DNA of 64,000 bases from a virus (IMGVR_UViG_3300033489_000003:40644-104643); one strand, 5' to 3'; shown: positions 8,335 to 63,990, counted from the stretch's first letter. Numbers and translations are program-made. The notes: a model not told the origin generated them from the sequence alone.

Positions 8335-8559
8335 TCAGCCGCCTTCGCCTTCGGGTGAGGGCGGCTTTTTTGCGTTTGGTGCTTCGAGTGCTGCGCGCAT
8401 CATGTCGGCGGCGCCGGCTTGGCCAACGGCCTCGACGTTTCGGATCCACTGCGCGATCGCCGTTCGGAAGCGCTCGGTTTCTTCGCGGAGACTGTCGATC
8501 TCCGCGCGCAAGTGCGCCGGCCCTTTGCGAAACATCGCGTACCATTCCTCGTCGTTCAT
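8335..8559 (-). CDS. Hypothetical coiled-coil protein
   Basis: MNDEEWYAMFRKG..LRAEIDSLREE; typical small phage gene. Confidence 0.55.
   Translation of the reverse strand: MNDEEWYAMFRKGPAHLRAEIDSLREETERFRTAIAQWIRNVEAVGQAGAADMMRAALEAPNAKKPPSPEGEGG
8337..8371 (+). terminator. Intrinsic terminator-like hairpin
   Basis: AGCCGCCTTCGCC-TTCG-GGTGAGGGCGGCT followed by a T run. Confidence 0.6.
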
Positions 8560-8789
8560 TGTTCGGCCTCGTTCTCCGCGCACGCTTTCGGTTTGAGCCG
8601 TCGGCCACCAGCTATTTGGTTGAATCGCTTTAGCAGGTCGAGCCGCTTGAATTCGAGATGAACGTTTTGATTGCGAAACGCCTTGAACCGAAACAGCGGA
8701 GTCTCCCCACGTCCTTCCCTTCCGCTCTGACCGATCGCCGTCTCCACCGCCACTCGACGCCGTCGTGAGACGCCGCCATTGCGCCAGAA

Positions 8790-9509
8790 TTACCGCAACC
8801 GACGCAGCTCGACCGCGTAGTATCGCCGTTCCCACTCCGCCCGCCCATGTCCGTCGCCGCGCCGCCCGCCTAGCGAAGCAACGCGAATGCGCGTCGCGTC
8901 TAGCTGCCCACCGAGCGAGCACGCGTAGGCCGGATGGATCGGCAGGTCGTGCTCGACGAGATACGCGAACACGTCGAGCCCGGACCACCACCCGATGGGC
9001 GCGCACGTGGACGCGCTGGACTCGCCGTATGCGCGCATCCGCGCCTTGCGTTGCCCGCTCTCGTCGGCGCGTACGCCGCTCACGTGAGCAGCGCCGAAGC
9101 GTTGCGCCGCTTCAGCGAAGCCACGCTCAAGCGTGCCCGTAGCATGCCAGCCGTCTTCGTCGCGGATGCACTGGCTCACGATCTCGTGATAGTTTGAGCT
9201 CGGGTACGTTTGAAAAAAAGCGTCTCGCACGAGCGAGCAATCAGGGTTGCAGATAGGCTCAACGCGGATCCAAACGACAGGCACCTCCGCCGCAAGCCCG
9301 GACACCATGTGAGCGATCACGACCGAGTCCTTCCCCCAACTGACACCCGCGTAGCATCGCGTCCTAGCTACGAATTCGGCGACAGCCGCGCGCGCCCTAT
9401 CTACGTGACGACGGTAGAGCGACAACGACGCGTGGGCTCGCGCTGTCCTCTCAACTATCTCCCACGCCGCAAGGTCATCTGGCGTGTGCCGCGGTGACGC
9501 AATCAGCAC
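8790..9509 (-). CDS. PAPS-reductase-family (CysH-like) protein of a type IV-B CRISPR locus
   Basis: PP-loop GVSWGKDS, SGVRADES..R, PI..W...DVFAYL..HDLPIHPAY. Confidence 0.88.
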   Translation of the reverse strand: MLIASPRHTPDDLAAWEIVERTARAHASLSLYRRHVDRARAAVAEFVARTRCYAGVSWGKDSVVIAHMVSGLAAEVPVVWIRVEPICNPDCSLVRDAFFQTYPSSNYHEIVSQCIRDEDGWHATGTLERGFAEAAQRFGAAHVSGVRADESGQRKARMRAYGESSASTCAPIGWWSGLDVFAYLVEHDLPIHPAYACSLGGQLDATRIRVASLGGRRGDGHGRAEWERRYYAVELRRLR

Positions 9510-9970
9510 GGTCGCCACGCACCGAAAACGCTCTCGGCTAGCCTTTCGTGTTTGCGCCATTCGCCAAACCCAAACCGCTGCATCTCGTCCCACGTGGCAG
9601 ATCGTGTCCAGCCTGTGTGAAGTCGATGGGCGGCGACAACGGCGCCTGTCCTATGCGACCCTTTCCAACAATGCACGAGCGTTCCACGCACAAGAAGCGA
9701 TAGCACGTTGAGCGCTGGTAATCCCAGATGCTCATCGATCGGAAATCGAACGTACTCAACGCCAAGCTTTGCGTAGGTGCTTGAGGCCAGCAGTTGGCGA
9801 GGATTGTCTCTGAGGTCGACGACGCGACGGATTGCGTTATGAGTCAATGCCAGCTTCAATTCTCCGGCGGAATACTTTCCGGATCGGAACAGCCCGCGGT
9901 CGAATTCTGCGAACCTGCGCAAGCTCGTCAGCCCGGCACCGCGCAAAGCTGCTCTCGCGAATGCATCCAA
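9503..9970 (-). CDS. Cys-based protein-tyrosine/dual-specificity (SIW14-like) phosphatase; start uncertain
   Basis: LFRSG, VVDLR, P-loop HCWKGSHRTG (CX5R). Confidence 0.85.
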   Translation of the reverse strand: MDAFARAALRGAGLTSLRRFAEFDRGLFRSGKYSAGELKLALTHNAIRRVVDLRDNPRQLLASSTYAKLGVEYVRFPIDEHLGLPALNVLSLLVRGTLVHCWKGSHRTGAVVAAHRLHTGWTRSATWDEMQRFGFGEWRKHERLAESVFGAWRPC

Positions 9971-10575
9971 TACGGAAACGTGATCGTTGCATACGCGAGC
10001 GGAGGATCCTCTAAACCTGGCCAGTCCGCCGGCAACGCGCGCAGTGGCTTACCATCTCGGACGACTGGAAACCCGTCTCCCCACGACTCATACGGGTCCA
10101 CGGCCCACTCGCGAACCCTTCCGCGCCCGGTTGAACGCTTGTGCCCAAGGTAGCGAACGAGAGTGAGCAGATCGCGAATGGCGTCAGCGTCACCCATGGC
10201 GAACCACTCAACCTCGTCGCGCTCTGCCCACGCTACTTCGCTCGGCAAGCGGTACGACTTCGTTGGCCCTGCCGATAACAGAATCCGTCTGAACTTCGTT
10301 GCGCCCATTGCCTGCGCTTCGGCAAGCGGGAACTTGCGGTTGACGTATCGCAGCTCGTGCTGGTCGAATTTAGGCGTAGCGAACGAGCACAGGTGAAACC
10401 TACCGCAGGGCTCCTTCGTAACCGGGATCTCGATGTCGGCGAGTTCGCCGAATCCTGGCGGTGGCAGTTGATCGCGCTGTGCCACGGCCCACGCGAGCAG
10501 ACCATCTAGGCGTAACGACCCGTCCCGTAGCGAGATGGGGCCATCTAGCCGCGCCGTGATTCGAAGCGGAGTCAC
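9928..10575 (-). CDS. csf3: Type IV CRISPR Csf3 (Cas5 family RAMP)
   Basis: PLRITARL..P..LDGLLA start; GDADAIRDLL; G-loop LGHKRSTGRGRV; RALP, PYW. Confidence 0.85.
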   Translation of the reverse strand: MTPLRITARLDGPISLRDGSLRLDGLLAWAVAQRDQLPPPGFGELADIEIPVTKEPCGRFHLCSFATPKFDQHELRYVNRKFPLAEAQAMGATKFRRILLSAGPTKSYRLPSEVAWAERDEVEWFAMGDADAIRDLLTLVRYLGHKRSTGRGRVREWAVDPYESWGDGFPVVRDGKPLRALPADWPGLEDPPLAYATITFPYWMHSREQLCAVPG

Positions 10576-11555
10576 GCATTCACCGTAGCGAGAAACTCTT
10601 TGATGCGCGCCGCCCTGGCTTGAACGTGCGACCTGAACATGGTCCCAGTCTTCGCGGCAAGATCCGTCGTGTCCATGGGGTGTAGCCTATCAGCCGGCGC
10701 ACTTACGGCAACGCCCTTGGCCATAATGGCGCGGAGTAGCCCATGCCCTGTTCCTCGCTTTCCGCCGACGCGCGCGTTGGCAAGCATTGCTGCCACCGTA
10801 GTGGAGAAAACGTCGACATCGAGATCGTTGTAGAGCGTGGCCTCGACTCCCCAAGAGAAAAGCGAGCCTGACGCGACGCGTTCGAACGTGCGGGGCAACA
10901 TCGTACTCTTCGTTGCCTCCCGCGCCGTTGCGATGTCGGTATCGTGCGCGGCTTCGCTCTGCAAGAGTCGGTTCTCCGCATCGGAAGCGGCGCCAGCAGA
11001 TAGGAGCTTACGCTTGCCTGGGTCGAGCGTTGGGTCCATGCGCACGCGCTGCTCTAGTTCCATGTGCGCGCGTGACGTGTCGAACTGACCTACGTGATCA
11101 ACGATCCACTTTGGCAAAAGGTGCTTTGACTCCGCGCAAACCAGCAACGCGTCCTCCACGACGAGTCGCCCAGGGATGACGCGATTGCCTGCGCACCCGC
11201 CCAGCAGCGACAGGGACGGCACGAGATCACACATCTCTCGATAGGTGTCGAGTTTGATGGTGCTGGCGTCACCACGTCCAGTGATCATTCCGCCAGCAAA
11301 GAGAAGGCGGAGAGCGGCCTCCGACAGCGACGGGTCGGCCAGCAGCCCAGCGGCGTCGAGAAACGCGTACGCGATGGCCTCACGGCAAGCGTGGCGCATC
11401 GTGTCCGACGTCACGCACGCCACTTGCGCCCACGCACCATCAGGCATGCGGATCTTGCGACGGAACGCGACGGCGCTGTTCCCGTGCACTTCAGAGTGGT
11501 GCGCTATTGGCGTTGCCGCCTCCAGCAAAAACTCAAACCGTTTGATCTCGTGCAT
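10572..11555 (-). CDS. csf2: Type IV CRISPR Csf2 (Cas7 family backbone)
   Basis: GGAGG RBS; TPIAH, MRH..RE, LFAGG, PSLSLLGG, PGRL.V, G-loop VGGKRGTGHG. Confidence 0.88.
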   Translation of the reverse strand: MHEIKRFEFLLEAATPIAHHSEVHGNSAVAFRRKIRMPDGAWAQVACVTSDTMRHACREAIAYAFLDAAGLLADPSLSEAALRLLFAGGMITGRGDASTIKLDTYREMCDLVPSLSLLGGCAGNRVIPGRLVVEDALLVCAESKHLLPKWIVDHVGQFDTSRAHMELEQRVRMDPTLDPGKRKLLSAGAASDAENRLLQSEAAHDTDIATAREATKSTMLPRTFERVASGSLFSWGVEATLYNDLDVDVFSTTVAAMLANARVGGKRGTGHGLLRAIMAKGVAVSAPADRLHPMDTTDLAAKTGTMFRSHVQARAARIKEFLATVNA

Positions 11556-11916
11556 CTCTAGCCTCCTTACGTTCTTCGGCAATCTTTCTAGTCAAAACCA
11601 ACAGGAACGCGTATTCCCGCTCGATAAGGTCCAGCCACTCACTTGCGCACCCGCGCTCGTGCACGAGGTGCGTCAGTTGGAGTAATGATGTCGAATAGCG
11701 AACACTGGGCGCCGACAGTTGGAGCTGTCTTGCGATCATCGTCGCCCACTCCTCCGGACCCGACGACATCCGCGCCGCCGCTCTCATTCTGTCCTGCAAC
11801 TGCTCCCAATGTTTCAGCACGTTCACGTGCGGCGTCGACAGGTATGCCGCTCGGATCTCGAGCAGCACGTCTACCGTCGCGCTTCGGAGTTGCTCCTTCA
11901 CCTTTTCTTCTATCAC
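11533..11916 (-). CDS. Small alpha-helical subunit (Cas11-like)
   Basis: GGAGG RBS + GTG; 127-aa helical protein (HWEQLQDRMRAAA) between csf1 and csf2, as in subtype IV-B. Confidence 0.7.
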   Translation of the reverse strand: MIEEKVKEQLRSATVDVLLEIRAAYLSTPHVNVLKHWEQLQDRMRAAARMSSGPEEWATMIARQLQLSAPSVRYSTSLLQLTHLVHERGCASEWLDLIEREYAFLLVLTRKIAEERKEARDARDQTV

Positions 11917-12646
11917 GCTGAGCCTCCTTCTTTGCGGCCCGCGCCGCCTTCTCTTCTTCCATTCGTTTGGCGACCGTTTCTTCATCTCGTTGCGCCAGCC
12001 ATAGCGCGAGCGCGAACCACGGCGAGCGGCGCTTGTCCGACCAGTTCTCCTCGAAACGGCGAATCTCTTCGGCGCACCGTTGGTATGAGCCCTGTCCGTA
12101 CTCACCGCGCTCCACTTCTTCTTTCGTCGCGCCAGCCGTAAGCAACGTCGTCATTCGATCGACAAGCGTCCACCCGGACGCATGATCGATCGGAATCGTT
12201 ACGAGCGTCTCCTCGAACATGATGGCGCCTCGCCGTGTATTTGGCGGGTTCACTGGCGTCCAAGGAATCACGTGTTTTTGGCCGCTGTCAGCAATAGCTG
12301 CGAACCACGGCCCCTCTTTCGGCGCACGCAGCCACGCGCGCATCTCCGGCTTGTTTCCCTTGTTGAACTTGAGCACGCATCGATCATCTACGAGCCACGA
12401 ATACATGCGCATCGTATCCGGCGGTCGGCCGGCCATCACGTGGACGCATGAAGCGCAAACATGTGCGCTGGACGGCGACCGAACGCGTGACTGACCGACG
12501 AACGTACTGCCTAGCCACCGCTCCACCGGAACACCGAACACGCTCGATCCGGCGCAGACCCAGCAATGTTCAGCGGCATGCTCTACAGCGTCGGCGACCT
12601 TCGCCCCGCCGAGACGGTCGCTCAAAAGTTGAGAGGCCATCATCAC
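11639..12646 (-). CDS. csf1: Type IV CRISPR Csf1 (Cas8-like large subunit)
   Basis: CWVC...CASC Zn site; P..PWFAAIADSGQKH..PW.PVN motif. Confidence 0.82.
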   Translation of the reverse strand: MMMASQLLSDRLGGAKVADAVEHAAEHCWVCAGSSVFGVPVERWLGSTFVGQSRVRSPSSAHVCASCVHVMAGRPPDTMRMYSWLVDDRCVLKFNKGNKPEMRAWLRAPKEGPWFAAIADSGQKHVIPWTPVNPPNTRRGAIMFEETLVTIPIDHASGWTLVDRMTTLLTAGATKEEVERGEYGQGSYQRCAEEIRRFEENWSDKRRSPWFALALWLAQRDEETVAKRMEEEKAARAAKKEAQRDRRKGEGATPKRDGRRAARDPSGIPVDAARERAETLGAVAGQNESGGADVVGSGGVGDDDRKTAPTVGAQCSLFDIITPTDAPRARARVRK

Positions 12647-13587
12647 AGCATCATGTCCGTTATTATGACACGACCGCACCCGAATGCCGTTCTGCCTCCG
12701 AATCCAATCCTAGCCGCCGCCTCGAGCAGCCACCGCGAAACCGCGTTCACCTCAAGCACGAGCGATCCGCTCCACCCACGCACGGGCCCATACTTACCAC
12801 CGAATGGTATCGTTTCCGGATGCGTGTCCTGTGACACGATCTCAACGCAGATCCTCTTGGCGACATAGCGCGCCCACTCCTCTGACGGGGCGAGTCGTCG
12901 AACGAACTCAACACCGATCGCGCTTGCTATGTTGACGGCGCCAGGTCGAACGCATTCCGACGCACCACCGCCCGAGCGAATGACGATCGGAGTGATGGCG
13001 TCGAGCCGAACCAGCTGCCGCCCGCGCCTTTGGATCGCAGGTGATCGAAAGCGCCACGCCGGTCCAAACGTTAGCGTAGTCGGCCGGTCGAACAACGGAA
13101 CGTGTACCGACTTTCCTGCTAGCTTCATTCCTTCCTGTCTGAACCAGTGTACTCCCCATCCGGATCCATGCGGGACGAGAGAGAAGTTTGGAATACGCGG
13201 CACGTGGCCGGCGCCGAGTACAGCCGTAAGCGCGCCATGAAGAGCGGGCGAGTTTCTTAGTTCGATGGGCCAACGCGGCAACGGTGAATAGTGCACCGTC
13301 ATGGCGCATCCCGGAAGGTGGACATGGTATGGAGGAGCGCCGGCAAGCCAATGGTTTTGGCGCGTGCAGTTTCTGTTCCTCCTCGCCCACGCTTCGCACC
13401 GAAGCCTTACGGCAAGCGTTTCGCCAATCGGTCGGCGTCGCTCTCTAGTCTGTTCGCGAGCGCTGTCTAGCGTGCGTTTGCGTTTGCTCCTACAGGCTTC
13501 AGAGCACGTCGCCGCGTTCGCGCACAGTTTCCGGAACGTTGACCCGCATTGAACGCACCAAGCTTGCCTTATTGAGGACAACGGCAT
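12643..13587 (-). CDS. cas6: Cas6-family endoribonuclease with an N-terminal Zn ribbon
   Basis: TPIVIR; GWSG; C-terminal G-loop IGFGGRTAFGCGRV; N-terminal CVQC...CSEAC. Confidence 0.8.
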   Translation of the reverse strand: MPLSSIRQAWCVQCGSTFRKLCANAATCSEACRSKRKRTLDSAREQTRERRRPIGETLAVRLRCEAWARRNRNCTRQNHWLAGAPPYHVHLPGCAMTVHYSPLPRWPIELRNSPALHGALTAVLGAGHVPRIPNFSLVPHGSGWGVHWFRQEGMKLAGKSVHVPLFDRPTTLTFGPAWRFRSPAIQRRGRQLVRLDAITPIVIRSGGGASECVRPGAVNIASAIGVEFVRRLAPSEEWARYVAKRICVEIVSQDTHPETIPFGGKYGPVRGWSGSLVLEVNAVSRWLLEAAARIGFGGRTAFGCGRVIITDMML

Positions 13588-13589
13588 TG

Positions 13590-13886
13590 CTACTCTCTCC
13601 TCCTGTAACGCTCAACACATCTAACGCAGCTCGGCACGTTGGCGCTCGTCACCGTGTGCGCCGGCTTGCTGCAAAAATAGCATTCGAAGATTCCACGCTG
13701 CTTACGTGTGCCGTCGAGTTGTTCGCCAGTCTCCGGCTTGCGCCGCGGCGTCGCAGCTTGCTGCGTGATTGACACCGGTTCGTTGGCGTTATCCCAAACG
13801 AGCATGCCCACCGGAAACATCACCCCGACCTCCCGCATGTCGGACACCGCGCGATCAATCCCATCAGCCGCGCGTGCGTTTTGCAC
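13590..13886 (-). CDS. Small Zn-finger hypothetical protein (start uncertain)
   Basis: CYFC...CVRC; fills the tnpB-cas6 gap. Confidence 0.5.
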   Translation of the reverse strand: MQNARAADGIDRAVSDMREVGVMFPVGMLVWDNANEPVSITQQAATPRRKPETGEQLDGTRKQRGIFECYFCSKPAHTVTSANVPSCVRCVERYRRRE

Positions 13887-14030
13887 GGAACGCGCGGTTG
13901 CGTGACAACTCCTTCACGAAGCATTGTCTGCCTCGCTACGGCTTCTCGGTTCAACGAGGCGCTTACAGCTCGCCCCTCCCCGATCGCGGTGCCCCCGCGA
14001 TTGTACGTTCTTGGCAGCGTTGACGTCGCG
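13882..14030 (-). ncRNA. Putative TnpB omegaRNA (scaffold ending GTCAC at 13902, guide about 13901-13882); 5' end uncertain
   Basis: GAACCGAGAAGCC...hairpin CGAGGCA-GACAA-TGCTTCG...GGAGTTGTCAC resembles IS605 right ends overlapping the tnpB 3' end. Confidence 0.65.
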
Positions 14031-15107
14031 GTCCAGTACGAGTCCGCAATGCGGACAGTCGTGGACGCGAACGCTTAGGCTCTTGCGAACCGTAGCGCCG
14101 CAACCGCTGCATTCTTGTGATGTGCCGCGTGGTTCCACCTTGATGAACTCGCGTCCGGCGCTTTCAGCCTTGTACGCGAGAATCCTGATGAATTGTGCCC
14201 ATCCGGCGTCGTGAACTTGTTTGGCTAGGCGCATCTGCGCCAAACCTTTGATGCTGAGATTTTCGACGGCGACCGAATCGAAACGGGCGACGATGCCGCG
14301 CGCCGCCTTGTGGTGGAAGTCGAGCCGAGCTCGCCTGACGCGGTCGTGTTGCTTCGCTAGCAACACAACCGCTTTGCGACGCCGACGCGAACCGCGTTTG
14401 CGGCGAGTGACCTTACGGTCAGCCGTTTTGAGCAATTGTAACGCGGACTCGTAGCGCCTTGGATTCTCAACAGTCTCGCCGGTGCTCAGAGCGGCGAAAG
14501 TGGTGACGCCAACGTCGATGCCAACGCTGGCGCCTGTTGCCGTTAGATGTTCGACGCGGACGTTGTCGCACACGAAAGTCACATACCAGTGGCCGTCTCC
14601 GGCGAGCGTGACGCGGACTTGCTTGACCGTGCCTACGATCGGGCGATGCAGCTTAACCTTGACCTTGCCGATGCAAGACAGTTCCACCTTGGTTCCGCCA
14701 GCAACAAGGCGAGCGCCGTTGCGATTTATCGCGTCACGGAACGTGAAAGTGCGGTAGCGCCCACGCCCCTTGAACCGTGGAAACCCAGGAGTCTCGCCGG
14801 CCTTGCAGCGACGGAAGAACGCACGGTAGGCGCGGTCGAGACGCGTGATAGCGTCCTGGAGCAGGTGGACGTGAATGCCAGTGTACTCTGGCCGTACAAC
14901 GCGAACTTCCTTCAGCTCAAGCTGCTGTTGGTACTCGGAAATGGATCGCCCCTGCTTCTTGTAAGCGTCTCTTCGCTCCTGTAGAGCAGCGTTGTATAGT
15001 TCACACAGTAGGCGCATCGTTTCTCGCAAGCGCGCCTCTTGGGCCCGCGTAGGATAGATACGATAGCGATAGGCGCGGATCACAGCGCCATCCTTGACTC
15101 TACTCAT
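13914..15107 (-). CDS. tnpB: TnpB RNA-guided endonuclease (IS200/IS605 family); alternative start GTG 15083
   Basis: RAYRYRIYPT HTH, GFPRFK, RuvC-I GIDVG, RuvC-II VENL, Zn finger CSGC..CPHC, RuvC-III DRDVNAA. Confidence 0.95.
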   Translation of the reverse strand: MSRVKDGAVIRAYRYRIYPTRAQEARLRETMRLLCELYNAALQERRDAYKKQGRSISEYQQQLELKEVRVVRPEYTGIHVHLLQDAITRLDRAYRAFFRRCKAGETPGFPRFKGRGRYRTFTFRDAINRNGARLVAGGTKVELSCIGKVKVKLHRPIVGTVKQVRVTLAGDGHWYVTFVCDNVRVEHLTATGASVGIDVGVTTFAALSTGETVENPRRYESALQLLKTADRKVTRRKRGSRRRRKAVVLLAKQHDRVRRARLDFHHKAARGIVARFDSVAVENLSIKGLAQMRLAKQVHDAGWAQFIRILAYKAESAGREFIKVEPRGTSQECSGCGATVRKSLSVRVHDCPHCGLVLDRDVNAAKNVQSRGHRDRGGASCKRLVEPRSRSEADNAS

Positions 15108-18488: not shown

Positions 18489-18769
18489 CGTGCGCCTCCG
18501 TCTCGGAGTTCGAAGACGCACCCGCAGCCGTCGTAGACGCGATAGATGGCAGACGATGCGCCGCGCTCTCGGCAGCGAGAGACGCAGCCGGCCATGGCGC
18601 CGTCTTGGTAACTAGGGCCGGGGTTGCAGCCGGCGAGGAGTAGCGAGGCGCCGCTAGCCAACACGAATTGGCTTGTTTTGCGCCATTTCACCAGTGCAAA
18701 GGCGCGTAGTATCTCACTTATTCTTTGGCACGCAGACTCCAAGGGTGTGCTTTCCCGCGCAAGCTTCAT
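18485..18769 (-). CDS. Hypothetical lipoprotein-like protein
   Basis: LLLAGC followed by a Cys-rich tail; ATGA overlap with the integrase. Confidence 0.45.
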   Translation of the reverse strand: MKLARESTPLESACQRISEILRAFALVKWRKTSQFVLASGASLLLAGCNPGPSYQDGAMAGCVSRCRERGASSAIYRVYDGCGCVFELRDGGAR

Positions 18770-20235
18770 AGCCGCTCATCTCCCGCGATCTCTTCAGCCG
18801 ATCGCCATTCTACCACCGGATCGCGATCTCGCTCGATTCGTACCGCGTGCGCTAGCTCATGAAGCGCCGCGCGCTGCACCTGTCGGTCGGCCCTTTTCCA
18901 AATCGTCTTGATGTTCTCGATCCGCAAGAGCGCCTCACGCCGAAGACCTGCGTTCTCGAGCGGCGACGGCCTGGCTTGCTGAGCCGCCTTCGACTCCAAC
19001 CGCGTCCGCGCCTCGTCGACCTTGGCCAAGGATGCGACCAGCTCAGCCTTGGTCATTCCCGCGTCTGAGAACGCCTCCAGGAATCGCTCGCGCTTCTTCT
19101 GGAGTCTGACCCGCTCCGCCACGAAGTCGACCGTCTTAGCCGGCTTCTGTGGCTCTGGCCCACGGCCCAACTCGTCGCGCAGTTCCACAAGCCGAGCCAG
19201 CGTCATGTCAGCCACCAATGGGTCGAAGTGTTTGACCTGCATGTAGTGGGACCCTGGGCAGGCGCGATGGCACCGGTAATAGTAAGTGTAGTTCTTGGCG
19301 CCAGTGTAGAAGCCGCCGCCGTAGGATGCGCCAAGCCTTGCTCCGCATCTTCCGCACCGCCCGATCTCACGAAGCAGCCAGTCCTTGGTGCGGGACCCCG
19401 CCTGCGGCGCCGCACCGACGAGGCGCCGAGAATCAAGAGCTGCCTGCGCGCGCGCGAAGACATCCGCGTCGATGAGCGGCTCGTGCATGCCCTTGATCCA
19501 AACGCCGCGCGTATCTTTCGTCTCGCCGAGGTAGATGCGGTGACGCAGCGTCTTGTTGACGAGCTTCTTGTCCCAGCCACGATGACGATAGGTCTTCGTG
19601 AGGTGGTCGAGAATCGTCCCGATGGCCGCGCCGCGGATGCACATCCGGTACATCTCGCGAACGATCGCTGCGCCATCGGCGTCGACGATGAGCACGTTGT
19701 GTTCGAGTCGAGAGACGCCCTTGCGCGGCGGACGCACGTAGCCGATCGGCGCGAGTCCGTCGATGTAGTAGCCGCGATCTCGCAGCAGACGTCTCGTTCC
19801 AACCGTCCGCTCTTTGATGCGCTTGTGTTCTTCCCTGGCGACGAGCACTCGAACGCCGAGCATCGTGTCACCGTCTCGGGTCGACGGGTCGCACCTGTCG
19901 CCGACGGCGTAGAACGAGACGCCAGCCTCAAGCAATCTTCTGATGCTGCCGTATGTGAACTCTGGATCGCGCGACCACCGGTCGAGCTTGTCGCACACGA
20001 CGAGGTCGCCCTTGCGCGCCTCTTTGAGCAGAAGCTGGATCTGCTCTCGCTTTTCGATCCGCTCGTAGACTGCGCTCTCGGCTTCAACATAGAACCGCGT
20101 TACCTTTAGGCCGCGTGCTTTCGCGTACGCCGAGATGGCGTCTTGCTGATCTTGGAGTGACGTTCCCCTTGCTTGATCTTCGCTGGAAACTCTCGCGTAG
20201 CCGAATACTCGGCCGACTGTTCCGGCTCCGGACAT
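18766..20235 (-). CDS. Large serine recombinase (integrase)
   Basis: GYARVSS catalytic Ser, DRWSR, recombinase domain, Zn ribbon CGRCG..YYYRC..C, coiled coil. Confidence 0.93.
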   Translation of the reverse strand: MSGAGTVGRVFGYARVSSEDQARGTSLQDQQDAISAYAKARGLKVTRFYVEAESAVYERIEKREQIQLLLKEARKGDLVVCDKLDRWSRDPEFTYGSIRRLLEAGVSFYAVGDRCDPSTRDGDTMLGVRVLVAREEHKRIKERTVGTRRLLRDRGYYIDGLAPIGYVRPPRKGVSRLEHNVLIVDADGAAIVREMYRMCIRGAAIGTILDHLTKTYRHRGWDKKLVNKTLRHRIYLGETKDTRGVWIKGMHEPLIDADVFARAQAALDSRRLVGAAPQAGSRTKDWLLREIGRCGRCGARLGASYGGGFYTGAKNYTYYYRCHRACPGSHYMQVKHFDPLVADMTLARLVELRDELGRGPEPQKPAKTVDFVAERVRLQKKRERFLEAFSDAGMTKAELVASLAKVDEARTRLESKAAQQARPSPLENAGLRREALLRIENIKTIWKRADRQVQRAALHELAHAVRIERDRDPVVEWRSAEEIAGDERL

Positions 20236-20726: not shown

Positions 20727-20863
20727 TGGGAAGCGGGCAGGACTCGAACCTGCGACCCAAAGATCCGGTAACGATTCTCGGCCGGCCCGTCACCGGGCAA
20801 AGATGTGAGAACCGATATCCCTTGCGGGAATTCTTTTGCTCTACCGACTGAGCTACCGCTTCC
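20727..20863 (-). ncRNA. tRNA-shaped Y-like RNA B (anticodon loop replaced by an insert carrying a Ro-binding-type helix)
   Basis: Acceptor GGAAGCGG/CCGCTTCC; D arm TAGCTCAGTCGGTAGAGC; anticodon stem AAAGA/TCTTT; T arm GCAGG-TTCGAGT-CCTGC; insert contains CTTTGCCCG-GTGA-CGGGCCG. Confidence 0.85.
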
Positions 20864-21165: not shown

Positions 21166-22854
21166 TCAGTTTCGAGCAAAGTCGGCCATGAGGGCCGGCG
21201 CCGCAGAATCGAATCCTACGAAGTCCAACATTCCGGCATCGTTGGGATCGGCGATCGTGAACTCCGTTGCTGTCATGCCAACTACGGCTAGTTTGGCTGG
21301 TCGGCTGAGCTTCTCCCGGTACGCGCGGAGCGCCTGGAATGGATGAATCGTCCCTGCCCAAGTTTCGTTGTCCGTGTAGACCTGGAACATGTCGACCTCG
21401 ATATCGGAGCCGGCTGCGTAGAGCATGGGCAATGCGCAATCGGTTCCGCCCATGGGCAGCTTTGCTATCGCGCGGATGACGTCGTCGAGGCGCTGCTTGG
21501 GGCTGATATCGATCGGCGTGAAACCCGGCGCTCCGCCGCCATGCATGCCACCGTACCCGCGTCCGTTCATCGGTGCCGTAAACCCGAATATGTGCCAGTT
21601 TTTCTCTGTGCGAGCAGTCACCATTGCCATCGCTGCGCTGGCCACGCGCGGCGTGAGACCAGGGCAGCCAGCGATTGCGCCGCTTTCCATAGACCCTGAG
21701 ACATCAAGGCCGATCAGGATGTTCTTGCCCGTCGGCTCCACCGCCTGAAACGCCAGGTAGAACGCTTCGTCGAGCGCGTCGACAATCTCCCGCGCTGGAG
21801 CCCAGGTGAGCTTGCCCTTATCCCCGTGGCCTTGCTGATAGACGCGCAGCGCCGACAGGAGCGCGATCGGGTGAACGCGCGCCTTCTTGATCCTGTCGGC
21901 GTCGGCGATCATGCCGGCCGCCAGCTTGACGTGCTCGCCCATCGGCTTGAAGAGCCCGACTGCCGTCATCTTCGCGAGGTTGCGGACCAGCGCCGTCTGC
22001 GGCATCTCTTCGAGCAGCGCTTCCCACACGTCCACCGAGTTCTTGTGCTCTGTCGGGATCATCTCGTGGGTGAATCGATGTTGCCGGATGAGCTTCGCGG
22101 TCGTCTTCGGATCCGGCGACGCCTTGAGCTCATCGTACGCGGCGAGAAGTGCTGGCAACGCTTCCAGCCTGCTCGGGTACTGGACTGCGCGCTCTTCCTT
22201 TCCGGCCATGCGCTTCATGCCGCGCTCGCCCATCGGGGCGCCTACGCACCAACGGAACGCGGCGTCATGCTGCGGCGTGGGCGCCTTCGGATGCGATAGA
22301 CGCAGCACGTCACGATGGGCCCAACCGTAGCGCTGTTGATACTTGAGCAGCTGCTGAGCGAGCCTGTCGGGCTCCTTCGCGGTGTACCACCGAGCAACCG
22401 CCGAGCGCAGACCTCGCCCCCACTTGCGGAAGTTCTCCACGTCACGAACGAAGTGGAACAGGTGGGTGCCGATGCGGCAGACTTTCGGGAGAGCAGCAAG
22501 CGCAATAGCCCTTGTTTCCGGCCTGCTATCAGCGGCCGCCATCGCGAGCGCGAAGATCGCCGGGTCGTTCTTGGGCGCGCGACCGGCGTCGGAAATCTCG
22601 ACGATCCGAGCGACCGTGCGCGCCCCGTCTTCTGCGAGGCAGTCGAGGACGACTTGCGCGTTGTCGCGCGTGAGCGCCCGCTCAGAGGCGTAGTAGGTCC
22701 CGCCGTCAGCGCCCAAGATGAGCCAGCGATCAAGCCGCGCCCACTTGTCGAGCGTGAACGCGAAGCCCCCAGCGGAGTTCTTCTTCTGGTCGCTCCGCGC
22801 AGACTCCGACTGCGGCGTCTTCAGCGTGGAAAAGTGTTGCCCATAGTTCGACAT
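21166..22854 (-). CDS. rsr: Ro60/Rsr ortholog (TROVE + vWA RNA-binding protein)
   Basis: AGGAG RBS; NSAGGF, LILG..GGTYY, GWAHRDVLRLSHPK, ALVRNLAKMT, VHP, MIDAS DVSGSM, GGTDC, TDNETW, IADP.D.GMLD.VGFD. Confidence 0.95.
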   Translation of the reverse strand: MSNYGQHFSTLKTPQSESARSDQKKNSAGGFAFTLDKWARLDRWLILGADGGTYYASERALTRDNAQVVLDCLAEDGARTVARIVEISDAGRAPKNDPAIFALAMAAADSRPETRAIALAALPKVCRIGTHLFHFVRDVENFRKWGRGLRSAVARWYTAKEPDRLAQQLLKYQQRYGWAHRDVLRLSHPKAPTPQHDAAFRWCVGAPMGERGMKRMAGKEERAVQYPSRLEALPALLAAYDELKASPDPKTTAKLIRQHRFTHEMIPTEHKNSVDVWEALLEEMPQTALVRNLAKMTAVGLFKPMGEHVKLAAGMIADADRIKKARVHPIALLSALRVYQQGHGDKGKLTWAPAREIVDALDEAFYLAFQAVEPTGKNILIGLDVSGSMESGAIAGCPGLTPRVASAAMAMVTARTEKNWHIFGFTAPMNGRGYGGMHGGGAPGFTPIDISPKQRLDDVIRAIAKLPMGGTDCALPMLYAAGSDIEVDMFQVYTDNETWAGTIHPFQALRAYREKLSRPAKLAVVGMTATEFTIADPNDAGMLDFVGFDSAAPALMADFARN

Positions 22855-22879
22855 GTAGATGCTCCTATCTTCCGTTGCG

Positions 22880-23173
22880 TCAGCCTTCTGTACTCCCAAA
22901 CCACCCAACGCCCAACCTCTTCGCCCACTCGCCAGCGGTCCGCGTCACGACGTCCGCGCCATCCTGGTCAATCTGCGCGATGTCACCGTCCTCGTCACAC
23001 CACATCCCAAGCTCCTCCTCGTCCGGCCACTGCCGCCACAGCGCGTCGTCCGTCTCGTCGTAGTTGTCTCGGCATTCGCCCGTCTGCTCGAACAGCGCCG
23101 TCCACGCGTCCGCGACGTCGGCCGCGACGACGAGATCGCAGTCGGAGAACTCGAAGACGTGGAGGGGGGTCAT
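22880..23173 (-). CDS. Acidic hypothetical protein
   Basis: ATGA-coupled ORF. Confidence 0.6.
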   Translation of the reverse strand: MTPLHVFEFSDCDLVVAADVADAWTALFEQTGECRDNYDETDDALWRQWPDEEELGMWCDEDGDIAQIDQDGADVVTRTAGEWAKRLGVGWFGSTEG

Positions 23174-61600: not shown

Positions 61601-63990
61601 TCGCGGCGCGATGGTGAGCCGCGGCAGAAAGCGTCGCGTCGCAAAGAAGCAACTGGCGCGGTCACTGCGCACCGAGCGAATCCACTGGAAACGCCTGCGC
61701 GGGAGTCACGATGTGGCGATTAGGATGGTGAAGGTGAGCCTTACGACGGCGCCATTTGGCGACTGGATGGAATGCGTGGCGTCTGGGCACGTGGCACCGA
61801 GTGCGGATTTGAAAACGATTCTGATTGGAGGCAAAGATGGACCCTGAATTGAAGGCGATGCACACGGTACAGAAGTCACTCGACGGGCTCGACGAGGCGA
61901 CGCGCGCGCGGGTGCTGGATTGGATTTGGAAGAAGTTCGGCATGCAGGTGGCGGTCGGGACGCTGGAGGAGTTGGCGGAGAGTGTGAGGTTGCCTGACCC
62001 GTTGGCAATGCCTGTGCTGCCGGCCATGAGGGGCAAGTGAACGCGGAGCTGTGGCAGCGGTACGTGGAGGCGCGACGCGCCGAGCGTATGGCAAAGCAGA
62101 CGCTTCAGCTCGCGGAAACGCGGCGGAGTGATGCGTCACTCACGCACTCGATGATGCAAAGCAGATTGTCTCAGGCTCAGTACGAACTCGAGTGTGCCGC
62201 TTACGAAGAAGCGTTTCCTGGCGAGAAGGCGCCACCGTTCGTCGAAGGCGAGCCGGTGACGTTGGAGGTCGGCGGCGTCACTTTCACAACCGGCGGAGTT
62301 GGGAAGATGGCGGAGGAAACGTGATCGACGTCACAGCGATGCTGCGCCGCGCGCTTGTTCTATGGCCTGACGTGACGATCACGCGCACGGCGCCAATGAA
62401 CCTGAAGAATCACAAGTTGTGCCGGTTCTCGTGGGACGTCTTCGTCACCGTCTACGGAGACAAGAAATCGACGCGGAGTCACTTCCGAGCGAGGTCTCTG
62501 CCTGAGGCGCTTACCCGAGCGATCGACGCGGGCGAACTCAAAAAAAGCCGAGCGACATGGCGGTCAAAGAAAAAGAGGACAACATGAACCGAAGAGAAAC
62601 GATTCTGGGCATGCTGATGACGCCGTTTGCAACGCTGTTTGCGGGTAAGGCGAAGGCGGCGGAGGTGACGACGGGCGGGATTCAATACCCGCTTGACCTG
62701 AGCGGGAAGACGCCCCGTTTGACGCAGGGCGAAACGCTGCTGTGGAACGAGAGCAAGTGGCCCGCGATGCCAGCACCAAAGCTGACGCTCTACCCGCCGG
62801 TTGAGCCTGGCCATGTGCGGATGTTCGATGGGCACTGGGAGATCGAGATCAATGGGCAGAAGTTTGAGGTGCCGTTGAAGGTGCCGGTGATGGTGGTGAA
62901 GCCATGAGCGACGTCGAACGCATTCGGAACATGTGGGTGGAAGGACAGACCGAGTTCATGTCTGCCGCCACCGGCGAAGACCGCGGGCGCATACGGGCGA
63001 AGCTTGAGGCATTCTTCAATGAGAAGTGCGCCGACAGGATCGCCAAAGAGAAAGCGAGGATGAGCTGATGTCATCCGACCGCGAGGCGATGCGCCGCCGG
63101 CTGCTTGCGCGGCGAGAGAGGGATGGGGAGGCGGACGACGAGGACAACTTGCCTCAGGCGCTTGGCGTGATGGCAATGCCGTGGGGTCGAGGCTGCGGCT
63201 TCACTCGCTGCCGCGAACTCGACGACGTCGAGATCGTCGGCGTGAGTGACAAGGAGGCGCACATCGTCAAGCCGAAGATGGCGCCGGGTGAGACTGTGGC
63301 GCATAGGGAGAAGGAGGCGTCGTACGATGTGCGAGTCACCGGGCTACCGTCGTTGGCTACGATCCGCTCAAATCTCGAGACCACAATCGGCATCTTTCGC
63401 GAGGCGTGCGCCAATCCTCGCGAGGACGCTAGCGAGGAAGAGCGGGCGGAGATCCGAGCTGACCTTGCGGCGATGCAGGCGCGGCTCGCTAAGCTCGACG
63501 AGCGGCAGCGCGTCAATGATGAGTTGGCGGATAAGAGCGCGGTTGGCGAGCTGGACAGAAATGGCGCCAGGGTGAGGCCGTGAAACGAAACATGCTCGCG
63601 CTTACACGACGCGACGCGAGACTCATCGGGTGGTCTTTCGTAAACGGATACCTGCTGGATGAATGCGCGTCATGTAAGTTGTGGCCGGCAGAATACCAAT
63701 GGGGGGAGGACGGCGACCCATACTGCTACCGGTGCGTCAACCAGCCGTACCCGAGCTCGCCTGTCGATATGATGAACTGGTCTGACGAGGACCGCGGCGG
63801 GATGCCGTACGAGCGATACGCGGCGGCGAGCGGTTACCGTCTAAGAAATGGCCGTTGGACGCGGGAGCTAAGTCTCGATCGGGTCACGCGTATGATTCCA
63901 GTCGACGTGAGTGGAGACCGCCGCGTCATTCTTGATGTTTGGAAGCGCCTAAGGGCCCAGCTGTGGACGAAGAAGGAGGCAAAGCCATGA
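58603..63990 (+). other. Run of about 20 short, translationally coupled hypothetical genes (nin-like region)
   Basis: Consecutive + strand ORFs with GGAGG RBS and ATGA/GTGA overlaps; no recognisable domains. Confidence 0.7.

Follow-up and report, generated by a model that had tools for sequence, protein, structure and literature searches.

A phage-borne type IV-B CRISPR-Cas variant with a dedicated Cas6 family and no detectable array

The window analysed here is a stretch of 64,000 nucleotides, bases 40644-104643 of the 104,643-bp IMG/VR virus record IMGVR_UViG_3300033489_000003 (CheckV grade complete), and positions are given in the window unless another locus or genome is named. On its minus strand, from 13587 to 8790, seven genes in the order cas6-like, csf1, cas11, csf2, csf3, Cys-phosphatase and cysH-like encode a variant of CRISPR-Cas subtype IV-B. 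IV-B is the one such subtype with function and RNA partner still unsettled (PMC8175902, PMC7038947). IV-B loci with Cas6 have been described as rare exceptions, with “only 12 instances” and no analysis (Pinilla-Redondo et al., NAR 2020; PMC7038947). Measured in this work are how large and how conserved the Cas6 family is, how often it occurs in an unbiased sample, and one replacement by a Cas6e-like gene. Cas6 is common in phage IV-B, which corrects the picture of a rare exception, and one lineage carries a different Cas6 family. A large phage branch with its own, apparently active Cas6 would provide a handle on the RNA partner of IV-B. The conserved clamp-type motif of Csf1 is likewise a pointer to the working place of the complex in the cell, and the variable enzymes wedged into the cassettes, here a Cys-phosphatase, are a pointer to its chemical output.

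All seven genes of the coupled, IV-B-like operon described in the first-pass annotation were found in the same order, and profiles from PADLOC, NCBIfam and Pfam support the typing of each subunit. Stop codons overlap start codons between the operon genes (TGATG, GTGA, GTGCTGA), and the genes are therefore translationally coupled. The cas6-like gene (12643..13587, minus strand like all genes of the cassette; 314 amino acids) matches Pfam Cas6 at E=0.006 and PADLOC Cas6 at 2.9e-6. Next stands csf1 (11639..12643; 334 amino acids), the Cas8-like large subunit, which matches TIGR03114 (1.3e-13) and PADLOC Csf1_0_IV (1.1e-29); its ATG overlaps the cas6 stop (TGATG) and its product has CxxC pairs at residues 27 and 63. 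The cas11 gene (11533..11916; 127 amino acids, all-helical; PADLOC Cas11_1_IV 2.4e-8) had been drawn as a separate stretch, and instead it is read in another frame on top of the final 277 nucleotides, or about 92 codons, of csf1. It begins at a GTG that is preceded by an AGGAGG site within the csf1 reading frame, and G+C content at third codon positions over 11900-11660 supports the cas11 frame. A profile search with Cas11 gave no match among PDB sequences; its AlphaFold2 model has a predicted local distance difference test score (pLDDT) of 96, and chain g of 7JHY, the IV-B Cas11, ranks first among the PDB matches to this model (TM 0.59, Foldseek E 0.79). The type IV Cas7 gene csf2 (10572..11555; 327 amino acids) matches PADLOC typeIV_Cas7 at 4e-38 and TIGR03115 at 1.6e-6, and the best solved relative of its product is the Csf2 of 7JHY (2.5e-9). 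The type IV Cas5 gene csf3 (9928..10575; 215 amino acids) starts at a GTG overlapping the csf2 stop and matches TIGR03116 (3.6e-15) and PADLOC Csf3_0_IV (1.1e-34). The matches to TIGR03114, TIGR03115 and TIGR03116 all lie under the NCBI equivalog cut-offs.

The positive features of IV-B are thus all present, namely Csf2, Csf3, Csf1, Cas11 and a cysH-like gene, together with the lack of helicase, adaptation genes and array. Matches to cas1 (PF01867), cas2 (PF09827) and a DinG-type helicase (PF13307) were absent from the whole genome, and so the earlier statement that cas1/2, dinG and an array are missing from the 64 kb extends to all 104,643 bp. A Pfam scan of the neighbouring genes returned no helicase; no model search was aimed at RecD. 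The cassette departs from the subtype only in the expected absence of Cas6/Csf5. Because a Cas6-fold gene leads the operon, it is classed as a IV-B variant rather than as a standard member.

The Cas6 assignment rests on structure as well as on profiles. The AlphaFold2 model of the Cas6-like protein, built with 30 homologues in the alignment, has a pLDDT of 92, and its top Foldseek matches are all Cas6 enzymes. VIA-align superposes residues 93-311 on Cas6 of S. thermophilus (6FJW) with Z 16.8 (212 residues aligned, root-mean-square deviation 3.8), and gives Z of about 15 to the Sulfolobus and Thermus Cas6 enzymes, 15.2 to the type IV Cas6 6NJY and 9.4-9.6 to the Cas6 subunits of IV-A complexes. 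As modelled, the protein is a true Cas6 fold, with a core of two RNA recognition motif (RRM)/ferredoxin-like domains and a C-terminal glycine-rich loop (12717..12664). Residues 1-88 fall outside this fold and comprise a CxxC...Cx3C Zn ribbon followed by two basic helices, which agrees with the extra N-terminal Zn ribbon reported in the first-pass annotation. In an alignment of 179 family members the glycines of the loop GFGGRTAFGCG are invariant, His117 (codon 13239..13237) is kept in 173/173 relatives and His128 (codon 13206..13204) in 168 of 176 (95%). His128 pairs with His39 of the S. thermophilus enzyme (6FJW) in a hidden Markov model alignment, which is a weak one, and counting by offset puts it where Thermus TTHA0078 has its catalytic His37. 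We infer from these alignments that His128 may be equivalent to the catalytic histidine that follows helix alpha-1 in other Cas6 enzymes. Cas6 is probably an integral and catalytic subunit of the phage complex.

When 1.84 billion representatives were searched exhaustively with the Cas6 profile, 214 clusters (at 50% identity) had E<=1e-30, and the Cas6 family is therefore large. With the Cas6 alignment as query, viral, genome and metagenome collections yielded 46 loci. Further cassette genes were found beside Cas6 by tblastn in 39 of these, and the remaining 7 are short contigs or partial matches. The gene occurs in three orders, either first, between csf3 and cysH, or after cysH, and the contigs that carry it are binned to several phyla. 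Inactivity of the Cas6-like protein and loss of its linkage in relatives had both been raised as ways in which the first-pass reading might fail; the gene is instead linked to the cassette, with one of the two histidines invariant and the other nearly so. One partial Cas6-like match (query residues 6-198) lies at L007:10001-10594 in a 20-kb viral locus with no csf or cysH gene detected nearby, and it is possibly a solitary or broken copy.

A scan of viral contigs with the Csf2 alignment served as an unbiased sample. It gave 34 loci, in which the Cas6 family is present in 20 and was not found in 13. The earlier remark that IV-B typically lacks cas6 is sound for the usual description of the subtype, and it does not hold in the phage/metagenome branch, where Cas6 is the majority state. 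In locus L063, which is one of the 13, a Cas6e-like gene (L063:7568-8413; PF08798 5e-8; PADLOC Cas6e / Cas6_0_IVA3) occupies the same slot between csf3 and cysH. In this lineage an unrelated Cas6 family has thus taken over the slot.

In the Csf2 tree a very long branch separates the phage/metagenome group from plasmid pFiD188 and Skermania phage SPI1, and the presence and absence of Cas6 are scattered over the tree with at least 8 changes. The earlier wording that the phage “retains” Cas6 fits this tree and is not proven by it. Pairwise distances of Cas6 and Csf2 are strongly correlated (Mantel r 0.80; 0 of 2000 permutations as high), and this correlation shows co-inheritance of the two proteins, not function. 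Across dozens of phage lineages Cas6 is inherited with Csf1, Cas11, Csf2, Csf3 and CysH, and more than 45 loci preserve every subunit of the module, in its order and with 40-75% sequence identity. The closest relative of the window Cas6 is 77% identical and lies on a 22-kb contig. The closest relative compared in context is L011, with Csf proteins 59-74% identical to those of the window (Csf2 74%). The region of synteny with L011 ends at the cassette edges, and the module therefore moves as a unit between phage backbones. Phage and plasmid records searched by megablast with the locus gave no match, and a single-protein scan of viral contigs with the window Csf2 returned no relative.

The window cassette can be compared with several known systems. 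Actinobacterial plasmid IV-B systems, such as those of Mycobacterium sp. JS623 (PDB 7JHY, PMC7937560) and Rhodococcus fascians pFiD188, have the same core of csf1, cas11, csf2, csf3 and a cysH-like gene and similarly lack array, adaptation genes, helicase and nuclease. Their Csf2 proteins (Rhodococcus, Gordonia, Mycolicibacterium) are 23-28% identical to that of the window across the very long branch. The window cassette differs in being phage-borne and in adding Cas6, a phosphatase and a clamp-type Csf1 tail overprinted on cas11. No relative of the window Cas6 was found in the plasmid IV-B loci, in PLSDB as a whole or in the cultured-phage set INPHARED. The 12 published IV-B loci with Cas6 (PMC7038947) are likewise array-less; what the present analysis describes is a large dedicated family with an N-terminal extension that is the majority state in a phage branch.

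The IV-A Cas6/Csf5 proteins (PDB 6NJY, 7XFZ, 8RC3) share the fold of the window Cas6 and presumably its role, which is to cut a hairpin RNA and to remain on its 3' end, where the Cas7 filament has its head. IV-A has an array and DinG and lacks Cas11 and CysH, whereas the window shows the opposite pattern and an extra Zn ribbon on Cas6. The Fuxivirus IV-B system of Bathyarchaeia viruses (PMC10848311) resembles the window in its virus-encoded effector and CysH-like gene. Fuxivirus has a two-repeat mini-array, however, whereas no repeat pair was found in the whole genome of the window phage, which has a bacterial host (tailed phage, bacterial-type clamp motif). The only cultured INPHARED phage with a Csf2 relative is the actinophage SPI1 of Skermania (KR011061, L103; Orf40-44), in which Csf2, Csf3 and CysH-like proteins stand in a row at 26%, 31% and 31% identity to those of the window and are annotated as hypothetical. 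Unlike the window, the SPI1 cassette has no Cas6-like gene.

A Cas6 enzyme suggests a defined RNA substrate, and one was searched for. No repeat-spacer array was found in the 104,643-bp genome, which is complete and was searched throughout, so the normal array that might have stood elsewhere in the phage is not there. Neither an array nor a mini-array was found in four further phage genomes that carry Cas6 (67-90 kb, complete or nearly so), or within 6-10 kb on either side of about 80 related loci; these searches returned only coding low-complexity repeats and operator-like palindromes. Rfam at permissive thresholds found no CRISPR repeat in the whole genome and returned only one tRNA-like match and matches at chance level. 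The cassette flanks have no 12-mers in common beyond near-identical phages. Cassette genes abut or overlap in almost all loci, the cas11-csf2 junction included, and there is therefore no internal non-coding gap. The intergenic RNA between tnpB and cas6 folds no better than its shuffles (z -0.66), and no cognate repeat RNA was found near Cas6 in the five phage genomes or the roughly 80 related loci. A defined Cas6 substrate, if there is one, has its gene elsewhere or lies concealed within coding sequence. Neither a solitary repeat unit, which was one of the substrates considered in the first-pass annotation, nor a mini-array nor any conserved non-coding element was found, and host pre-CRISPR RNA (pre-crRNA) and a non-CRISPR RNA of the phage or its host are kept as candidates.

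Other candidates were set aside. The guide RNA of TnpB was rejected as a general Cas6 substrate, as only 3 lineages have a TnpB or Cas12-like gene next to the cassette. A tract of about 400 nucleotides with a strict 5-nucleotide period of GGCNN units lies at L048:2075-2475 (genome bases 2075-2475, outside the window) behind two open reading frames (ORFs; 576-1454 and 1451-2056) without Pfam match, the first of which matches only a PHROG of unknown function. It was rejected as the Csf RNA, as the flanks of related IV-B loci hold no such tract. The intergenic cluster of GGAGTACTCC / CTCCGGAG palindromes in a related phage (G003 bases 63360-63520, L097) resembles operator sites rather than CRISPR repeats.

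A second feature, which is absent from the first-pass annotation, is found in the tail of Csf1. The Csf1 segment that overlaps cas11 is a low-complexity linker, and it carries the pentapeptide QCSLF at residues 313-317 of 334 (11693..11707, minus strand), which is of the type that binds the beta sliding clamp. The pattern Q[LIVC][SDGAET]L[FLW] occurs in 23 of 45 distinct complete Csf1 tails of relatives, often as the final residues, against 0.03 expected in shuffled tails, and a further 10 of the tails end in Q..LPGF. The Cas11 alignment is variable at the codons beneath the motif, so it is the Csf1 frame that imposes the constraint at this place. The consensus for binding the bacterial beta clamp is reportedly QL[SD]LF. 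The Csf1 pentapeptide matches the clamp-binding type and is described here as a putative clamp-binding motif. A literature search found no paper that connects Csf1 with a sliding clamp, and a clamp gene encoded by the phage itself was not found in the whole genome.

The cassette ends with two enzymes. The cysH-like gene (8790..9509; 239 amino acids) encodes a PP-loop protein of the CasCysH type, with SWGKDS at 9341..9324 and a match to PF01507 (PAPS_reduct; 1.1e-9, 39 bits against a cut-off of 22.5), and it is present in nearly all related loci. Its start had been put at 9593; GTG 9509, which overlaps the phosphatase stop, is likelier, because relatives align with the long ORF from its residues 27-30 onwards. 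The protein fits the CasCysH description, of which loss of the catalytic C-terminal Cys is a trait that was judged here by eye only (PMC8175902). The cysH-like gene of L011 (13702-14397) is only 29% identical to that of the window despite the similarity of the Csf proteins. Across loci, CysH identity to the window protein clusters either near 50% or near 27%, a split that would fit an exchange of two CysH lineages between cassettes.

The gene between csf3 and cysH (9503..9970, up to 155 amino acids, alternative start TTG 9922) encodes a Cys-based phosphatase of the protein tyrosine phosphatase (PTP)/dual-specificity phosphatase fold. It matches PF03162 (Y_phosphatase2; 1.2e-6, 28.6 bits against a cut-off of 27), PF22785 and PF22741 (1.6e-4), and its catalytic loop HCWKGSHRT (HCX5R(S/T)) spans residues 100-108 (9673..9647). 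Among the related loci compared, a phosphatase stands at this position in the window only. A weak relative occurs after cysH in L008 and L033 (L008:11639-12397; L033:4636-5547), where a PTP-like segment is fused to a SpoU-like methyltransferase domain (just below the Pfam cut-off). Other enzymes in or beside the cassettes include a cupin (L012:7452-7853), a radical SAM enzyme (L015:8481-9977), a YAcAr/SLOG-family protein (L002:14287-14658) and DNA methylases (L036 and L055). These different insertions suggest a conserved ribonucleoprotein core with exchangeable chemistry.

The explanation that best covers these observations, and to which we give about even chances, is a working, array-less IV-B ribonucleoprotein that has its RNA defined by Cas6 from an external source, is recruited to clamps and has a chemical or blocking output. 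By analogy with 7JHY and the IV-A complexes, Csf2 and Cas11 would form a helical filament on RNA and Csf3 and Csf1 would cap one of its ends. Cas6 would cut a hairpin-bearing precursor and remain on the other end, so that the RNA would be defined and not random. This RNA would originate outside the cassette. Two sources appear equally plausible, each somewhat short of even: pre-crRNA of the host, or a non-CRISPR transcript that the phage or the host provides. QCSLF in the Csf1 tail may bring the loaded complex to DNA-loaded sliding clamps of the host. There the CysH-like PP-loop enzyme, here with the phosphatase, would act on the bound nucleic acid or block it. Earlier work left the function of IV-B open and proposed that CysH modifies the bound nucleic acid (PMC8175902). 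Action on DNA-loaded clamps with such an output is proposed because the clamp motif and the enzymes suggest it, and the likely setting would be phage-host conflict or conflict between mobile elements.

Several observations weigh against this explanation. No RNA partner was found, with mini-array, solitary repeat, Rfam CRISPR repeat and shared flank motif all negative. About 40% of sister lineages are without the Cas6 family, so Cas6 is losable or replaceable. The window motif has Cys at its second position, unlike the reported clamp-binding consensus, and lies 17 residues from the C-terminus. Few lineages have the phosphatase, which is possibly an inserted gene without relation to the module. 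Finally, the solved IV-B complex, which has no Cas6, bound heterogeneous RNA and not the co-expressed crRNA (PMC7937560).

The strongest competing explanation, with perhaps one chance in a few, is that host pre-crRNA is cut by the phage Cas6 and passed on to a Csf complex that has no nuclease and would act as a guide sponge (anti-CRISPR) or reuse host spacers against competitors. It differs from the preferred explanation in that host CRISPR transcripts are the sole substrate and sequestration is the main function. The cutting of CRISPR repeats is the only known job of Cas6 enzymes, none of the five phage genomes has an array, and the Cas6e-like gene of L063 comes from a family associated with repeats of types I-E and IV-A3; the idea itself has been discussed before (PMC7038947, PMC8175902). 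A Cas6 family that is specific to the cassette, co-diverges with Csf2 and occurs on contigs of several phyla is, however, a poor fit to matching the Cas6 of each host. IV-B also occurs mostly without other CRISPR systems, and a sponge of such complexity has been judged unlikely (PMC7038947). Moreover, capture of host guides leaves CysH, the phosphatase and the clamp-type motif unexplained.

A bolder extension of the preferred explanation is that phage IV-B is a replisome-riding, RNA-guided modifier of nucleic acids, and this is an unlikely proposal. Cas6 would load a single defined RNA into the Csf filament, the Csf1 tail would hold the complex on the host clamp, and CysH and the lineage-specific tailoring enzymes (the Cys-phosphatase here, PTP-SpoU, cupin, radical SAM or SLOG proteins in other lineages) would mark or block DNA or RNA complementary to that RNA. 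If true, it would be a CRISPR-derived system with chemical modification or replication control, and not cleavage, as its output.

Some Cas6 relatives are single-turnover binders. A Cas6 that cuts no RNA and serves as a cap or assembly factor of the Csf filament on arbitrary RNA, as in the Mycobacterium IV-B complex, would be in keeping with such binding, with the heterogeneous RNA of the solved complex (PMC7937560), with the failure of the present searches to find a substrate and with the many sister cassettes that have no Cas6-like protein. This is rather improbable, as the two histidines at the expected catalytic positions are conserved at 100% and 95% across 179 diverse members. A different Cas6 family also sits in the same slot in L063, which argues for a shared activity rather than a shared interface. 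Conservation of the histidines and of the whole module makes both a purely structural Cas6 and a dead remnant less likely. A decaying CRISPR fragment or passenger without function, as the lack of array, nuclease and adaptation genes and the adjoining transposon-type TnpB gene might suggest, is highly improbable: each gene has an open frame and is coupled to the next, the related loci preserve both the order and the sequence of every subunit, AlphaFold2 confidence is high from small alignments, and the module passes as one unit from one phage backbone to another, unrelated one.

The TnpB gene was likewise absent from the first-pass annotation. It encodes an IS200/IS605-type RNA-guided nuclease of 389 amino acids (13914..15083, minus strand; NF040570 2.4e-88) and lies directly upstream of the cassette on the same strand, a position shared otherwise only by L050 (L050:1114-2295); in L052 a Cas12-like gene follows cysH (L052:8577-10574). 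Two TGA stops stand in the reading frame ahead of cas6 in L050, where the insertion may have clipped the Zn ribbon of Cas6. TnpB is treated here as an insertion beside the cassette and not as a conserved part of the system.

Between TnpB and cas6 lies a small ORF (13590..13886, minus strand, likely start ATG 13820), which on reading of its sequence has a C-terminal CxxC...CxxC Zn-ribbon-like motif and a stop 2 nucleotides ahead of the cas6 ATG. It has no family match in Pfam, NCBIfam or PADLOC and no homologue among the related loci, and its place in the module is uncertain. Downstream of cysH on the minus strand are two small ORFs (8753..8556 and 8559..8335), the first with a partial DUF4942 match (2e-6), followed by a hairpin at 8337-8366. 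The transcription unit probably ends here.

The source element is a probably temperate, myovirus-like tailed phage with a G+C content of 62%. This follows from the large terminase, major head protein, tail sheath and baseplate protein encoded in the same record outside the window and from the large serine recombinase (Resolvase and Recombinase domains; 18766-20235, minus strand) and Ro60 homologue inside it; carriage of the recombinase makes the phage probably temperate. The first 11 bases of the record (1-11) are identical to the last 11 (104633-104643), and the nominally linear record is for this reason probably a circular or circularly permuted assembly. In a listing of sequencing runs carrying the sequence, the phage occurs in soil metagenomes; these are DNA runs only, with no RNA sequencing run among them. 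The Ro60 homologue (21166..22908, minus strand; TROVE 2e-59, Ro60 vWA 7e-48) is followed by a tRNA-like RNA of 134 nucleotides (20729-20862, minus strand; Rfam tRNA, 53 bits), which is longer than a plain tRNA. The two look like a phage Ro60 / Y-RNA-like pair, located 7 kb from the IV-B operon.

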